Below, one piece after another: positions 1-46,481 of a stretch of 49,479 nt of DNA. The stretch comes from Candidatus Methanophaga sp. AG-394-G06 (GTDB taxonomy: Archaea; Halobacteriota; Syntropharchaeia; Alkanophagales; Methanospirareceae), in the NCBI GenBank assembly GCA_009903405.1, contig PRCZ01000005.1:1-49479 (forward strand). The letters run 5' to 3'. Both the position numbers and the translations under genes were made by a program. The notes under the pieces are model-generated. The model was given only the letters and a program-made list of their open reading frames with translations, searched no databases and was not told the origin of the DNA. Numbering within the stretch: the first letter of the stretch is position 1; every line of letters starts with the position of its first letter.

Positions 1-70
1 AATCCGTGTAAATCCGTGTAAATCTGCGTCCTAAATTAAATATGTAGAAGTTATACGTTATATACAATAA
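1..70. repeat. Hairpin-element family 1, right arm (truncated by window edge)
   Basis: AATCCGTGTA-AATCCGTGTA-AATCTGCGTC-CTAAATTAAA...AGTTATACGTTATATACAA; near-identical to 16358-16426 and to the reverse complement of 26471-26535 and 44947-45006. Confidence 0.85.
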
Positions 71-16226: not shown

Positions 16227-16295
16227 ATCCTGCTACTTCTCTGCTTTTATACTTCTTCTATTCTTATTACGGGACTCAAGTTATATAAATTCTAA

Positions 16296-16426
16296 GAACA
16301 AACTAAATAAAATCAATTAATGACACAGATTAACGCAGATTAACGCAGAAGAAATCAAATCCGTGTAAATCCGTGTAAATCTGCGTCCTAAATTAAATCT
16401 GTAAAAGTTATACGTTATATGCAATA
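16296..16426. repeat. Hairpin-element family 1, complete copy with short spacer
   Basis: GACACAGATT-AACGCAGATT-AACGCAGA / AATCCGTGTA-AATCCGTGTA-AATCTGCGTC arms. Confidence 0.88.
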
Positions 16427-26470: not shown

Positions 26471-26616
26471 GTATATAATGTATAACTACCGCCTATTTAA
26501 TTTAGGACGCAGATTTACACTGATTTACACGGACTTATTCAAGTTTGACCTTGTTGATCATTATCATCTGTGTCAATCTGCGTTAATCTGTGTCAATAAT
26601 TGATTTTAGTTTGTTC
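26471..26616. repeat. Hairpin-element family 1, complete copy (inverted relative to 16296-16426)
   Basis: GGACGCAGATTTACACTGATTTACACGGA ... ATCTGTGTCAATCTGCGTTAATCTGTGTCAATAATTGATTTTAGTTTGTTC. Confidence 0.88.
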
Positions 26617-26620
26617 CCAG

Positions 26621-29485
26621 TTATTTAGCATATTTCCCACGCCGATAAAACCTGCGTTTCAAAACCTCCTTCTCCGATTCGATGATAAGCCCGATCAAAT
26701 GCTCATTCACGGCCCCTTCTCCTTTTAAAATTTCACTTGCATCTTCCGGTTTAATCCCTTTACCCGCAAGTGTAACTAAAGCAGCCTTACCGTAGTTAGA
26801 AACCAACTCAGCCGATATAATCGCATCTTTAACCACTCTCCCCTCTTTTTTACTCTTCACTTTCCGTATCTCGCGCCTGACCAGCTCCTCATCCGCTTGT
26901 ACCGCACCTATGCGCTTCGATTCGCATTCCGGACATTGCACAGTATCCACATCATGTATCCGCGTTACCGCTACATACCTCCAGCAGTTTGTGCATACAA
27001 AAGTCAACGACTCGTCAAGCAACCTTGCTTTCACATACTTTATTATTACCTTATGCATCCTATCGGGCGGGATCAGCTCATAGCCCCTTTTTATTACCTC
27101 CACGATTCCCGCAACAGGGCTAACGCCATCACCTTTTAGCACACTGATTTTTAATTTGCCCGCGGTTATCTGTTTTAACAATCCGATAGTCTGTTTTATA
27201 TTCACATCCTTATCCTGAGCTTCTCTTATAGCTTCATCGAATACTGCAGAGCCATCAAAACTCCTTATCAGGTTGTCAAGGTCCAGATCACTCAATGACG
27301 CTTTCTTCGCTATAGCTCCAAATCGTCTCGCTACATGTATGAACCTATGCTTAAATAACCTACTTCGGACTAATGAGTCGATAGCGAGCTTTTCTATTGC
27401 TCCTGTTGATAGCGCTAAGATAATCGCCTCAACCTCTTCCGGCTCTAACTCGGATTCTGTTCTCAGCATTATCCTGTAAGGATCTTGCTGCACGCCCACG
27501 GGCGCACCTATCTTATCTGATATAACGGTAGCAAGGATCATGGCTAACGTCCGATTTACAAGCAGCCCGAACGAGCATTGCAAGATTATATATTCATTCC
27601 ACTGTTCGAGCGTTAACAGCTTATCTGTCGGTACGGGATAACCGCCTCTCTCTTGCTCTATAACTTCATCTAAAGCGCGGGTAATGGTCTGCTCGCTACA
27701 AGAATAGCGCTGTACGAGCTCCTTACCTATCTCGGCAACCGCCTTACCTGCTTCAAGCTCTTCTTCCAGACCGCCACGGATCTTACCTACCTCGTTCGCA
27801 ACAGGATAAGGAACCGGAATCTCCTCTCCTACCCAGCTTGGGATAGCACCAGTCGGATCCTCTTCGTGCTTTACGTATATCCTATCGCCATACACGTGCA
27901 ATATCTTCCATACACGACCACCTTCGATGAACTTGTTCCCTGCTTTGGCATATTCAGCAACAAAGGCTTCGTCCAAAACGCCTACGGGTTTGTCATCGTC
28001 GTCAATGACCAAGAACTGTCTTACTTCTGGAATCATGGACAAATGCTCGAAATAATAGTTATATAGCGGCTTTATCTGTTTTGGTCTCATGAATACCTTC
28101 TCTTCGGCAGAGAACCAGAGAAGCCGTGGTATTCGTGAATGCATATAGACCAAGACGGAGACTAATTCCTGCTCCTCAAGGTCCCTATAGGGGTATGCCT
28201 TTTTTATCAGTGCCAACGCTTCTTCAAAGCTCCATCGCCCTTGCGCCATAAGCAATCCCGCTATTTGATGTGCCAGAACGTCAAGCGGCTTCTCCGGTAT
28301 GCCAGCAGGCTCTAAATCATCTGTAAGAGCCTTACGACAGATCACTAGCGATTCCAGTGCATCGTCCGAATCCTGAACAACTATCGCACCATTTGCAATG
28401 CCACCTATCCTATGACCGCTTCTGCCGATTCTCTGCAGCAGCCTCGTCACCTGTCTCGGTGAGTTATACTGAATAACAAAGTCCAGCCGGCCGATGTCTA
28501 TACCTAGCTCTAAGGAACTCGTGCAGATAATACCTTGCAGTTTGCCGTCTTTAATACCTTTCTCTACGTTAAGTCGTGATGGCTTGGATAGCGAGCCATG
28601 ATGAACACCAACGAGGAAGTTCAAATCCCAGACCCGGAACCGGCTTCCAAGGATCTCTGTTATCGAGCGCGTATTTGTGAATATCAATGTTGATTTATGC
28701 TCTTCGACCAGTTTCTTCATCAACTGTAACCGAGCGGCGACTTCGGGATATGTATATAGCTCTTCCGCCAGCTTATAATCTTCCGAATCGGCTCGTGGAT
28801 AAAAAACCTCCACCGCTATTGACCTGGCTATCGGGACATTGATTATCTCGCATTCTCGTTGTGTCCCGACCAAGAATTTCGCCACTCGATCTGGCGAGCC
28901 TATGGTGGCGGATAATCCAATGACTTGGAAATCTGCTTTCTTAAGGTACCGAAGCCGTTCCAGTGCAAGAGCAAATTGAGTGCCGCGCTTGTCACATGCG
29001 AGTTCATGCACTTCATCTACGATTACCCATTTGACAACTGCTAGGTGCTGACGCATAATCCTACCCGGTATTATCGCCTGTAACGTCTCCGGTGTGGTAA
29101 TCAGAATATCAGGTGGAGCCATTGCCTGTGCCTCTCTTTCCCTATTCGAGGTGTCGCCATGTCTCACGCCTAACCTCAGGTCAAGTCGTTTACACCACCA
29201 TTGTAATCGTTCAAGCATATCCCTATTCAAAGCTTTCAGTGGCGTTATGTAAAGGACTTTTATTCCTGCACCTCGTTCTGTTCGGATTAACGCATCTAAG
29301 ACGGGTAAAAGTGCCGCTTCTGTCTTGCCACTCGCGGTTGGCGCAATCAATAATACGTTTTTTCCTTCTGTTATAAAAGGAATAGCCCTGGTTTGTGGTT
29401 CGGTGGGACTCGAAAACCCTTTTTCACCTATTGCTTTTTGAATGGGGCTCGAGAATAAGGAGTATACCGTGGGTTCTAGTTCCAT
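26621..29485 (-). CDS. lhr: Lhr-family SF2 helicase with C-terminal Cys motif
   Basis: APTASGKT, TTPETL, DEVH, LSAT, HHGSL, SLELGIDIG, QRIGRSGH; CTNC...CPEC near the C-terminus. Confidence 0.93.
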   Translation of the reverse strand: MELEPTVYSLFSSPIQKAIGEKGFSSPTEPQTRAIPFITEGKNVLLIAPTASGKTEAALLPVLDALIRTERGAGIKVLYITPLKALNRDMLERLQWWCKRLDLRLGVRHGDTSNREREAQAMAPPDILITTPETLQAIIPGRIMRQHLAVVKWVIVDEVHELACDKRGTQFALALERLRYLKKADFQVIGLSATIGSPDRVAKFLVGTQRECEIINVPIARSIAVEVFYPRADSEDYKLAEELYTYPEVAARLQLMKKLVEEHKSTLIFTNTRSITEILGSRFRVWDLNFLVGVHHGSLSKPSRLNVEKGIKDGKLQGIICTSSLELGIDIGRLDFVIQYNSPRQVTRLLQRIGRSGHRIGGIANGAIVVQDSDDALESLVICRKALTDDLEPAGIPEKPLDVLAHQIAGLLMAQGRWSFEEALALIKKAYPYRDLEEQELVSVLVYMHSRIPRLLWFSAEEKVFMRPKQIKPLYNYYFEHLSMIPEVRQFLVIDDDDKPVGVLDEAFVAEYAKAGNKFIEGGRVWKILHVYGDRIYVKHEEDPTGAIPSWVGEEIPVPYPVANEVGKIRGGLEEELEAGKAVAEIGKELVQRYSCSEQTITRALDEVIEQERGGYPVPTDKLLTLEQWNEYIILQCSFGLLVNRTLAMILATVISDKIGAPVGVQQDPYRIMLRTESELEPEEVEAIILALSTGAIEKLAIDSLVRSRLFKHRFIHVARRFGAIAKKASLSDLDLDNLIRSFDGSAVFDEAIREAQDKDVNIKQTIGLLKQITAGKLKISVLKGDGVSPVAGIVEVIKRGYELIPPDRMHKVIIKYVKARLLDESLTFVCTNCWRYVAVTRIHDVDTVQCPECESKRIGAVQADEELVRREIRKVKSKKEGRVVKDAIISAELVSNYGKAALVTLAGKGIKPEDASEILKGEGAVNEHLIGLIIESEKEVLKRRFYRRGKYAK

Positions 29486-43909: not shown

Positions 43910-44898
43910 ACAGCATAAGAGTCATCATATCAGGTTGGATAGAACTCTCCGGACTGCCAAAGTTCGTAACTACTATGCTCCCGTTCCTCCTGGGCGCGGT
44001 AGTAGCATGGGCTTATGGGTGTCCGATAGACTGGATTGTGCTGGTATTATCGCTGCTTGCAGTGTTCCTGATAACCGATTCATGCTTCGTACTCAATGCG
44101 TGCAGTGTATACGCGGATCTAAAGCGAAACGGTGTCGATTTCTGTCCCGTAGATGGAACAAGCACGCTTCATTCCACTGCAGTCAGCGGCCGGTTTAACG
44201 CACTCGCGAAAGGACGTATAACAGTGAAACAGGCGGCTATTGGCTCTTATCTGTGCATATTGGCCGCATTACCAATCGGCGTGCTGTTGCAGTTCTATTT
44301 CTATACGGGCGTTCTAACCTTGCCGCTCGGGCTCATCGGCATCTTCATTGCATACGCGTATTCACGAGGGCCACAGTTCTCTTACCGCGGATTGGGCGAG
44401 ATAGCGCTAACCCTTGGGGTAGGGTGGTGGACAGTGTTCAGCGGTTACTATTTGCAAGCGCACCAGGTGAGCTGGCTCCCTATTGTCATTGCGTTGCCTT
44501 GGGGTATAGACGTATTCAAGCTGAAATTAACGCGAGAAATACCTGATTTTGACAGCGATCAGGTGATAAACCGCAGGAACTTGACAATTCGTATGGGCAA
44601 AGTCACGGCTGTCAGCCTCTATTTACCGTTAACGGTCGCTTCATGGCTCGCATTTATCCCTATCGTGTTCTTAGACGTACCATATATAGCGTTCGTGCTG
44701 TTAGCTCTTCCGATGTTCTTCACTGCGAAGAGTTTGATATTAATTCAAACGTTTAAAAAGAGTTTAATCAAAAATAGTGATCGATGGAAAGCCGAAGTAG
44801 GTATGCAAGCCATAATTAAAAACGCATTCACCGGTATGATATTGATTCCCGTTGCACTTATTGGTATTTTTGCTCTTAAGATGGTTGTATCGGTTTAG
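43906..44898 (+). CDS. UbiA/MenA-family prenyltransferase
   Basis: Multi-TM; G.D, YS.GP..YRGLGE, IPDFDSD...RRNL MenA-like motifs. Confidence 0.8.
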   Translation: MNSIRVIISGWIELSGLPKFVTTMLPFLLGAVVAWAYGCPIDWIVLVLSLLAVFLITDSCFVLNACSVYADLKRNGVDFCPVDGTSTLHSTAVSGRFNALAKGRITVKQAAIGSYLCILAALPIGVLLQFYFYTGVLTLPLGLIGIFIAYAYSRGPQFSYRGLGEIALTLGVGWWTVFSGYYLQAHQVSWLPIVIALPWGIDVFKLKLTREIPDFDSDQVINRRNLTIRMGKVTAVSLYLPLTVASWLAFIPIVFLDVPYIAFVLLALPMFFTAKSLILIQTFKKSLIKNSDRWKAEVGMQAIIKNAFTGMILIPVALIGIFALKMVVSV

Positions 44899-44906
44899 AT
44901 ACACGT

Positions 44907-45093
44907 AACCACGAGATTATAACGTATGGCAACCTTTTGTTTTATTTTGTATATAACGTATAAGTTCTACCTATTTAGGACGCAGATTTACACGGATTTA
45001 CGCAGAAAACTATTTCCTCAAAGTATCTAATAATCTCCTCCGTCAACTAAACCTTATATTTTAAATCCTGCTTATCTGCGTTCATCTGCGTCC
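44907..45093. repeat. Hairpin-element family 1 copy with a decayed ORF start in its spacer
   Basis: TTGTATATAACGTATAAGTTC...GGACGCAGATTTACACGGATTTACGCAGA / ATCTGCGTTCATCTGCGTCC; extra AACCACGAGATTA at 44907. Confidence 0.85.
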
Positions 45094-45115
45094 GATTATC
45101 AAAAATTATTCTTTT

Positions 45116-45184
45116 TCATATCTCACTTGCGACTTCCACGCCGCCAAATCCAGAGCCTAGCACTACTACTTTCATATTGTTCAT
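45116..45184 (-). pseudogene. N-terminal remnant of an FAD-dependent oxidoreductase
   Basis: MNNMKVVVLGSGFGGVEVASEI*: Rossmann GxGxxG motif then an immediate stop. Confidence 0.65.
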
Positions 45185-45248
45185 TACTGTAAAATAGAAA
45201 TTAAAATTTATAAAGATAGAGGTTATTACTACCAACATCAAAGTAAAA

Positions 45249-46481
45249 ATGCTGAAAATGGACATACTAATCCTACCAAAGCTGCTTCCCAGAGCGGACA
45301 TCATTGGCGGACCTATCTTAATCTATCATCGAATTAAGAACCTGGCTTCGATGGGGCATAAGATAACCCTGATTGCGCCTGTGTATACGGATGAAGATCG
45401 AACGGATAAAAGTCTTGCACCCTTCTGTGAAATGATTATCAAGATCGATTCTGTCCGGGAGCGACCAGAAGAAGAAGTAGAGGCACTTTATAAACAATTA
45501 CATAGACCGAGGAACTTCTTAACCAGGGACGGTGGTTACAATGACGTGCTAGACGAGGCATTGAAATCAGCATTAATGGATAACCATTTTGATGCGGTTA
45601 TTGCTGAATATTCAATGATGGGGCAGTACATAGAGTCAAATCGTAGCCTCATCCCCGCAGATACCATGTCTGTGATTTCGGTACATGAATGCTATACAAA
45701 AGCGTTTGAACTAAGAGCCGAAAAAGGAGAGGCTATTAGTGCGGATACAATAAAGGAGCTATTTAATTACGAGTTTAAGATGTATGACGTTGCTGATAGG
45801 ATTTTATCATTAACCCAGGAAGATGCCGATATTATGATAGGCTATGCGCCAGAACTGAAGGACAAAATCAGGGTAGTGCCTCACGGAGTGGACACAGGAT
45901 TTTACACGCCGCCTGAGAAGAGCTCAGGGGCAAGAAACACAAAAAATATACTCTATCTTGGCAATTTCATGCATAATCCTAATGTAGACGCGGTAAATAA
46001 TTTCATCAACCACTGCTGGACGAGAATCCTGCGGGAAGTTCCGGATGCTAAGTTTTACGCAATTGGAGGTAGTCCACCACAGGAACTCCTGGATTTGAGA
46101 TGTGAGAATATAATTGTCCGGGAAGGCGGGACTAACGATAATGTGCGGCGGACTTACTGGGATAGTGATGTGTTAGTGGCGCCGATTGAGTTGGGTACAG
46201 GTTTCAGAGGAAAACTCTTAGAAGCGATGGCTTGCGGGCTGCCAGTAGTTGCCACTCGACTGGCTACTTTTGGTATAAGTCCCGTAGAAGGGGAAGAGAT
46301 GTTCGTAGCAGATGATTATGACGCTTTTTCCAGATATGTGATTATGCTTTTAAATGATGTCGAGCTGAGGAAGAAGATTAGTAGGAATGCATTAGCATTA
46401 GCAATGAAATTTGATCATAGGTATGCAGCCGAGAAATTAGAGCGGGTGCTTAAGGAAGGACCGCGGTGGGTAAGAACCTGA
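45249..46481 (+). CDS. Glycosyltransferase family 4
   Basis: VPHGVD, G.F.H.PN.DA, G.RGKLLEAMACGLPVVAT. Confidence 0.9.
   Translation: MLKMDILILPKLLPRADIIGGPILIYHRIKNLASMGHKITLIAPVYTDEDRTDKSLAPFCEMIIKIDSVRERPEEEVEALYKQLHRPRNFLTRDGGYNDVLDEALKSALMDNHFDAVIAEYSMMGQYIESNRSLIPADTMSVISVHECYTKAFELRAEKGEAISADTIKELFNYEFKMYDVADRILSLTQEDADIMIGYAPELKDKIRVVPHGVDTGFYTPPEKSSGARNTKNILYLGNFMHNPNVDAVNNFINHCWTRILREVPDAKFYAIGGSPPQELLDLRCENIIVREGGTNDNVRRTYWDSDVLVAPIELGTGFRGKLLEAMACGLPVVATRLATFGISPVEGEEMFVADDYDAFSRYVIMLLNDVELRKKISRNALALAMKFDHRYAAEKLERVLKEGPRWVRT

Follow-up and report, generated by a model that had tools for sequence, protein, structure and literature searches.

Background

When a gene-bearing insertion sequence (IS) undergoes internal deletion, both ends of the element are left in place, and the deleted form, a miniature inverted-repeat transposable element (MITE), multiplies. 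Elements of the IS200/IS605 type are small, with asymmetric ends and subterminal hairpins, and free-standing homing endonuclease genes of the PD-(D/E)xK type are small and selfish and spread by cutting a specific DNA site. Here we compare with these systems an element of about 170 bases in a stretch of 49,479 nucleotides (nt) from the archaeon Candidatus Methanophaga sp. AG-394-G06 (hereafter the window, meaning the whole stretch analysed). By alignment, we show the element (44947 to about 45114) to be the gene-less descendant of an approximately 0.47-kb cassette carrying a nuclease gene of the GxxExxY family (TIGR04256/PF13366, also PDDEXK_3).

Two further bodies of work are relevant. Repetitive extragenic palindromic (REP) doublets forming hairpins (REPINs) and their REP-associated tyrosine transposases (RAYTs) are, in the sections cited, described as mostly vertically inherited (Bertels & Rainey 2011, PMC3116915; PMC3337134). 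In Geobacter metallireducens, paired arrays of tandem octanucleotide or heptanucleotide repeats lie on opposite strands at many sites and are called 'predicted global regulator binding sites' in the part of the paper cited (PMC2700814). As for the nuclease family, the function of PDDEXK_3 is listed as unknown, with multiple transfers noted, in the pertinent part of a 2012 superfamily survey (PMC3424549), and the excerpt cited from another paper mentions a GxxExxY-domain gene only in passing (PMC8934634). Our literature search, outside which supplementary repeat tables lay, brought to light neither a GxxExxY cassette whose arms form hairpins nor later functional work on the family. The cassette class appears to be undescribed in print, the present case being archaeal and accompanied by evidence of inter-genus transfer.

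The element in the window and its parent cassette

The window is contig C75 of the source assembly (G000; 1.53 Mb, 119 contigs, 75% complete). A preliminary description of the window had proposed that the spacer of a hairpin element holds the decayed start of a GxxExxY-like gene, with the ATG inside a repeat arm. Its minus-strand reading of the arm was exact in both DNA and translation: positions 45093-44978 read GGACGCAG-ATG-AACGCAGAT, with the ATG at 45085-45083, and the frame from this ATG translates as MNADKQDLKYKV*LTEEIIRYFEEIVF. The whole repeat unit is larger than described and extends from about 44947 to about 45114-45118.

The identity of the remnant was established by comparison with L032, a locus from another genus of the same family (genome G019), which is the intact form of this type (type B, see below) among the 16 full-length genes that were read. 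L032 has the same 5' outer module, the same arm containing the ATG, an open frame and the same 3' arm. Its frame, MNADNQDFKYKELTEEIIKIFYRVYNKLGYGFLEKVYENAMM…GTKPEVKRKAFDNLRK, runs for 131 codons from the ATG in the arm (L032:1471-1866), and the protein matches TIGR04256 with 137.5 bits (cut-off 35, E 2.4e-40) and PF13366 with 145 bits (cut-off 22, E 1.6e-42). The order of parts in the cassette is 5' outer module, 5' arm (10-nt units and the ATG), nuclease gene, inverted 3' arm and 3' outer module. In a blastn comparison, window positions 45114-45028 aligned with positions 43-126 of the L032 master sequence (80/87 identities, with a net 3-nt insertion), and the directly adjoining positions 45027-44971 aligned with master positions 450-506 (55/57 identities); the E values are 9e-30 and 6e-25, the pair being given for both ends. 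Master positions 127-449 are absent from the window copy, which amounts to an internal deletion of 323 base pairs (bp) in the gene. The proposed decayed gene start is thereby supported, its DNA being homologous to that of an intact TIGR04256/PF13366 gene which is bracketed by the same arms and likewise starts inside one of them, and the alignment extends that proposal, since the spacer also holds the last codons of the gene. The GxxExxY motif, correctly described as missing from the window copy, falls inside the deletion. The preliminary description had further suggested that removal of a TTT would restore the reading KELTEEIIR, and this was nearly right: AAGGTTTAGTTGACG in the window corresponds to AAG-GAA-TTG-ACG (K E L T) in intact L032, and the net 3-nt insertion relative to L032 creates the TAG.

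Two sister copies in the source genome give further support for the decayed gene start. One, C23:35116-35271, reads KYKELTEEIIRIFYRVYNKLGYGFLEKVYENA… and retains the GxxExxY motif (LGYGFLEKVY, in …KLGYGFLEKVYENA…) before a jump to the 3' arm. In the other, C27:8535-8666, the 5' arm with the ATG leads straight into the middle of the gene (…YEGEVIGEYYADLLVENKVIVEIKAARSL…), after which comes the 3' arm. A 19-codon remnant is too short for any threshold of a profile hidden Markov model (HMM), and one might suppose that a short open frame in a repeat merely resembles the GxxExxY N-terminus by chance. This is exceedingly improbable and was ruled out, since both ends of the window copy are homologous by blastn to the intact L032 gene, and graded intermediates occur among the sister copies. 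The window copy is not among the four PF13366 matches in the source assembly at E <= 1, since only 19 codons and the last few remain, which leaves it under the HMM cut-off. The alignments show it to be a relic of a family member and not itself a member gene.

On the minus strand, the element begins with an A/T-rich 5' outer module (45094..45114, …AAAGAATAATTTTTGATAATC), which is identical to the stretch preceding the intact L032 gene, is kept in all type-B copies and may be the promoter of the GxxExxY gene. The 5' arm (45074..45093) consists of two 10-nt units, GGACGCAGAT GAACGCAGAT, and holds the ATG. Codons 1-19 of the gene follow (45028..45085), with the insertion-derived in-frame TAG at 45049-45047, and codon 19 is joined directly to the last codons and stop (45007..45027, …TTTGAGGAAATAG). 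The 3' arm (44978..45006, minus strand; plus strand GGACGCAGATTTACACGGATTTACGCAGA) is the inverted repeat of the 5' arm and is common to the type-A hairpins described below. The 3' outer module (44947..44977, …CTAAATAGGTAGAACTTATACGTTATATACAA on the minus strand) is common to types A and B; L032 has its first 7 bases without the remainder. Contigs carrying other copies diverge from the window beyond 45114 and before 44947, the ends being loose.

Positions 44978-44997 and 45074-45093 form a 20-nt inverted repeat (80% complementary, 76 nt apart), and the single-stranded DNA fold of the element has an energy of -14.9 kcal/mol (z = -2.76; 2 of 200 shuffles equal). With at most one mismatch, the arm core GGACGCAGAT occurs 10 times in the window against a shuffle mean of 2.5, and none of 100 shuffles reached 10. 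An Rfam 15 scan of the window at gathering thresholds gave two transfer RNAs only, and no family matched the element.

Related elements in the source genome

An exact search for the core GGACGCAGAT gave 45 sites in the source assembly, which fall into two types having one outer end in common (plus strand …TTGTATATAA-GTATAAC…ATTTA, then GGACGCAGAT). Type A, the majority, has arms of one to three 10-nt units adjoining a short loop, whereas type B, to which the window copy belongs, has another end, …ATCTGCGTTCATCTGCGTCC-GATTATCAAAAATTATTCTTTCTTG. A blast census gave 96 matches to a type-A query, seven type-B 5' ends and 64 matches to the shared 3' part, from which we estimate that the genome carries roughly 60 or more elements in 1.5 Mb.

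Two of the four PF13366 matches lie between type-B ends (the copies on C23 and C27 described above), and the other two are parts of one nearly complete, frameshifted gene of another subfamily on C64, which has whole type-A hairpins on both sides. The assembly, which is 75% complete, yielded no intact GxxExxY gene, but such a gene may simply be unassembled. When the seven type-B copies were aligned, each showed a different internal deletion. The proposal that the hairpins are internally deleted derivatives of a gene-bearing element therefore holds for type B, the type of the seven copies with this 5' end, but its extension to type A does not follow. Type A matches type B at both outer ends and may or may not derive from the gene-bearing cassette; PF13366 detected no gene remnant in its spacers at E <= 1. 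In 28 short copies of type A the loop is the same, and most of the variation lies in how many 10-nt units make up each arm; only such unit-number changes, and no compensatory base changes, were found among them.

The type-A elements in the window include a hairpin with arms of 3+3 ten-nt units and a short loop (16288..16413, minus strand), a hairpin with a 32-nt spacer (26471..26621, plus strand) and a partial element cut by the contig end (1..67, minus strand), in which 6 nt separate the 3' outer module from the ATG of the next gene. Within 60 nt downstream of the 3' outer module, an ATG-started open reading frame (ORF) of at least 80 amino acids (aa) was found for 23 of 50 copies, compared with 506 of 3000 random positions. 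The gap between the module (GTAGAAGTTATAC..TATATACAA) and the ORF is often only 0-10 nt, as at window 44-67 with the ATG at 74. This could mean that the module is a portable promoter or that the element favours gene starts as insertion sites.

Multiplication, gain and loss, and probable transfer between genera

Across the genus, gene-less type-B copies fall into a few breakpoint classes. The class of the window copy has the 5' part up to about master position 86 and the 3' part from about master position 410, and it was also found at G003:C111, G003:C33 and G004:C2. The flanks of the four copies differ on both sides, and yet all four (4/4) have the same junction, ATTATTAGATACTTTGAGG, and the same stop-making 3-nt insertion after AAGG. 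The deletion therefore arose in an ancestral element, which then multiplied. These junctions show that the deleted form was copied after the deletion in the fashion of a MITE, and the type-A copies, with one loop and a variable number of units, point the same way.

Presence/absence polymorphism was seen for two type-A hairpins in the window, in each case with flanks that are 94-98% identical between genomes. The element at 16288-16413 is absent at the orthologous G005:C348 and present in G002, G006 and G001; its junctions, CATATAAC/TATATAAC, form an eight-bp direct repeat with 7/8 matches. G006:C237 lacks the element at 26471-26621, which G005 has and of which most is deleted in G002; here the junctions carry an exact 8-bp direct repeat, TATTTAGC.

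The comparison of G019 with the source genome argues for recent transfer between genera, since the pieces of the cassette are 92-97.5% identical, far more alike than the flanking argS (74.7%) and the other neighbour gene (73.9%).

GxxExxY genes and arms in other lineages

PF13366 was found in 16 of 41 related genomes (the source genome counted), including all seven other members of the genus, although many of the matches are N-terminal-only or C-terminal-only fragments. The expectation that GxxExxY genes of the lineage would be flanked by the arms was borne out by every inspected full-length gene (16/16), with repeat arms or whole hairpins on both sides. The genes of this archaeal family belong to four subfamilies, each with its own flanking repeats of short tandem units: three subfamilies have inverted arms, and the fourth has whole type-A hairpins. 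The genes start with an ATG within the 5' arm, at the inner end of the arm or as far as about 20 nt past it. In every genome searched, gene-less forms outnumber gene-bearing forms.

We also scanned one genome per species, which gave 80 loci from many bacterial phyla and some archaea, 77 of them with enough flanking sequence. Arms were sought as an ungapped inverted repeat with one half in the 140 nt surrounding the start and the other in the 160 nt surrounding the stop. A score of at least 13 was reached by 40 of the 77 GxxExxY loci against 5 of 147 offset controls, and a score of at least 18 by 27/77 against 0/147. The unit C[AG]GAT was four times as frequent at the GxxExxY loci as in the controls (1.09 versus 0.27 per 100 nt).

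Several arrangements of subfamily-2 sequences were observed besides. At L023:742-1857, a subfamily-2 GxxExxY domain is fused in frame as a C-terminal extension to the precorrin methyltransferase-like gene upstream (371-aa ORF); the fusion was also found at L022, L024 and L014 (genomes G002, G001, G006 and G005). In this type of fusion the arm encodes the linker and no in-frame ATG of the domain's own lies nearby. An open fusion frame is present in four genus members (386-390 aa) and likewise in G023, in which the gene retains an ATG of its own. At L153 (G001:C199:20800-21600), a frameshifted subfamily-2 gene is preceded by a second, truncated 5' arm of its own kind with the first codons, an arrangement that represents either a tandem or a nested cassette insertion. 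The source assembly, in which no subfamily-2 gene was found, contains scattered copies of the 3' arm of this subfamily (…CTCGTGGAAATCTGTGTAATCTTGTGGTTA…; C9, C31:41990, C36:3940 and others).

The nuclease

In an alignment of 83 sequences including that of L032, the residues of the GxxExxY motif (G31, E34 and Y37) and of the D…ExK signature (D73, E83 and K85) are invariant. An AlphaFold2 model of the intact protein (predicted local distance difference test, pLDDT, 92.6; predicted template modelling score, pTM, 0.86) had only PD-(D/E)xK nucleases as its top structural matches, namely the BpuSI nuclease domain (Z 8.3), 3ijm (Z 8.2), SwaI (Z 7.8), Cas4 SSO0001 (Z 7.5; Foldseek E 1.7e-4) and Hjc (Z 6.1), and a PDB sequence search with the intact protein gave no match at E <= 1. 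On the strength of the model and the conserved residues, the product of the intact gene is assigned to the PD-(D/E)xK superfamily with a predicted restriction-endonuclease-like fold, and the enzyme is plausibly active.

This nuclease is the sole ORF of the parent cassette, which has no transposase of a known family. A search of the 75%-complete source assembly with PF01797 (Y1) found broken fragments only. C42, the best of them and the only one inspected, is an IS200/IS605-type Y1 transposase pseudogene (C42:50251-50650, minus strand) split by a short A/T-rich insert, and no arm units were found in its flanks. A RAYT-like Y1 transposase was accordingly rejected as the mobiliser in this genome, the fragments being broken and C42 being without adjoining arm units.

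Proposed mechanism and alternative explanations

We tentatively prefer the explanation, which we hold with slightly less than even confidence, that the cassette is a piece of selfish mobile DNA, with a nuclease that acts on the arms of the cassette and with gene-less copies that are mobilised in trans. The arms, as arrays of short units, would be able to pair as a hairpin or cruciform, and the encoded nuclease would act on them to start the copying or moving of the element. Gene-less copies like the one in the window would, together with the more numerous type-A hairpins, be non-autonomous passengers and need the nuclease in trans, a scheme akin to that of MITEs with their IS or of REPINs with their RAYT. 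Given that no intact GxxExxY gene was found in the 75%-complete assembly, the copies may now be stranded. This explanation is favoured by the status of the window copy as a relic, the copied deletion form, gain and loss between genomes, inter-genus transfer, the unity of gene and arms, the plausible enzyme and the lack of a competing transposase.

A number of observations weigh against it. Only 40 of the 77 loci passed the ungapped arm test, although the test undercounts arms with differently spaced units, and the related genomes are kin and not independent samples. G003:C111 is the orthologous locus of G000:C84 but has another deletion form, so some decay occurs in place. The two 8-bp junction repeats could alternatively reflect palindrome-stimulated deletion between short repeats; apart from these two filled/empty pairs (8/8 and 7/8), a scan of 36 copies revealed no consistent target-site duplication, and none was found in the class of the window copy. 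The outermost modules are not inverted repeats of each other. Outer modules without a hairpin core also exist (G001:C57:12600-12800 versus G000:C86:18151-18257; G000:C39:5287), the core being bounded by the 5-nt direct repeats CTAAA / TTTAG and thus either a separate insert or lost by slippage; such hairpin-less modules make the actual moving unit uncertain. At G000:C86:23965-24331, two inverted 'R'-type arms enclose about 250 nt with a 63-codon ORF unrelated to GxxExxY, and G005:C163 lacks C86:23979-24326 and keeps the outer module only; a different small ORF between the same kind of arms implies that arms can travel without a GxxExxY gene. As to the enzyme, Z values of about 8 are middling for a structure search and indicate the fold, not the substrate. 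Finally, G005:C323 lacks window 44952-45187, which comprises the element and the adjoining stump of a host gene, while G006 lacks more; the G005 allele was rejected as a clean pre-insertion site of the window copy, because the host-gene stump is missing too.

In an alternative account the nuclease would be cargo, that is, an easily lost defence, addiction or accessory gene, in an element moved or copied by other means, for example by host replication or repair acting on palindromes or by an unlinked recombinase. We regard this account as somewhat doubtful. It accommodates the arms around the unrelated 63-codon ORF, absent in the sister genome, as well as the persistence of about 60 or more hairpin copies in a genome where no intact GxxExxY gene was found, and slippage could explain both the loss or gain of hairpin cores between the 5-nt repeats and the varying number of arm units. 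However, the association of gene and arms over many phyla, with arms specific to each subfamily, is better explained by an enzyme matched to its own sites than by interchangeable cargo; no further candidate for a mobilising gene was detected beside the elements, the Y1 fragments being broken and C42 without arm units; and an intact gene may simply be unassembled in an assembly that is 75% complete. A homing endonuclease, which would cut gene-less or empty repeat copies and spread its gene when these are repaired from a gene-bearing copy, would make the hairpins targets as much as derivatives. The gene-less outer modules without hairpins could be such targets, different internal forms at orthologous loci are what gene conversion would give, and the cassette is highly similar between genera, but both ORF ends survive in the window copy and the rest of its class, which are hence deletion products and not naive targets, and the excess of gene-less forms in every genome searched is the opposite of what efficient homing would give. 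We consider homing improbable.

Even less probable, in our judgement, is a mainly regulatory role, in which the unit arrays would be bound by a regulator, or would form an RNA stem, on a promoter-bearing module, with the nuclease gene as one of many neighbours. Such a role would suit the frequent position of the 3' outer module before ORFs, the ATG inside the arm (which an RNA stem could hide) and the annotation, in the section cited, of the paired inverted repeat arrays of Geobacter metallireducens as predicted global-regulator binding sites (PMC2700814). It is difficult to reconcile with the presence and absence of copies between genomes with 94-98% identical flanks, with gene remnants inside the elements and with the lack of compensatory changes and of an Rfam match, and it would not explain the 92-97.5% identity across genera. 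A resemblance to integron attC hairpins was set aside on the ground that the hairpins are dispersed singly and not in arrays, no integrase search having been made.

If the preferred explanation of a nuclease acting on its own arms is extended beyond this family, GxxExxY/PDDEXK_3 proteins would be the mobilising enzymes of prokaryote-wide hairpin-repeat cassettes, a PD-(D/E)xK counterpart of RAYT/REPIN. Each subfamily would be matched to its own arms, and the cassettes would be active in archaea and bacteria, move between genera and leave large gene-less hairpin populations, some of which would bring a promoter-like module to host gene starts. We put this generalisation forward as a possibility and would not call it probable.

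Host locus and other observations

The element in the window abuts the stump of a host gene (45116..45175, minus strand; MKVVVLGSGFGGVEVASEI*), which is the start of an FAD/NAD-type oxidoreductase with 19 codons. G007:C6 carries the oxidoreductase gene in full and G002:C20 a shorter form of it, and neither G005 nor G006 has it.

A subfamily-1 cassette is present in G001 and G006 (L007, L009), intact in the former and with one TAA in the latter; between the same flanking genes, the source genome has an unrelated sequence of 140 nt (G000:C86:25920-26058). This locus was rejected as a clean insertion site, as the sequence has been replaced and the site is not empty. At G000:C86:30810-30876, 67 nt absent from G005:C31 look like a different small inverted-repeat element.

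DNA of the source organism was found in marine-sediment and cold-seep runs. In contigs of two metatranscriptome runs over window 44300-45800, the element region was swamped by repeat copies. One contig (X17) joining 44900 to 45209 was rejected as a case of RNA processing, because it represents a relative's allele like that of G006.

Comparison with known systems

TIGR04256/PF13366 is a large and widespread family, and the cassette context gives it a testable role. Should the nuclease act on the arms around its gene, an origin would be provided for a common class of intergenic hairpins in bacteria and archaea, annotators would gain a means of recognising such repeats, and the enzyme would be a new sequence- or structure-specific nuclease with a defined substrate, its own arms. 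In the source archaeon, the elements make up a visible share of intergenic DNA, break assemblies and often stand directly at gene starts.

Among the systems introduced at the outset, IS and their MITEs resemble the present case in that an internal deletion has spared both ends, several unrelated loci carry the deleted form and presence/absence polymorphism is seen. Here, however, no DDE, serine or tyrosine transposase is involved, the outermost ends are not inverted repeats and target-site duplication is not established. IS200/IS605-type elements are likewise small and have asymmetric ends with subterminal hairpins, but their enzyme belongs to another family, and the arms of the present element pair across it in place of a separate hairpin at each end. 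The PD-(D/E)xK homing genes also consist of a small selfish nuclease gene; in the present case the gene lies between repeat arms, and its gene-less derivatives are far more numerous.

The arrays of Geobacter metallireducens are alike in their pairs of 7-8-nt unit arrays on opposite strands at many genome sites. The text cited makes no link to a GxxExxY gene and the comparison is one of descriptions only (PMC2700814), but the arrays may be related to GxxExxY cassettes.

The nearest system in logic is REPIN/RAYT, which, in the sections cited, likewise combines many dispersed intergenic hairpin repeats with a small gene flanked by repeats and with gene-less copies thought to depend on the enzyme in trans. 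A Y1 (HUH) transposase gene flanked by repeats, as in that system, was not found in the 75%-complete source assembly. In place of a Y1/HUH tyrosine transposase there is an enzyme with the PD-(D/E)xK fold, each arm is built of 10-nt units in variable number, the host is an archaeon, and the cassette looks horizontally transferred, in contrast to the mostly vertical inheritance described for REPINs and RAYTs in those sections.
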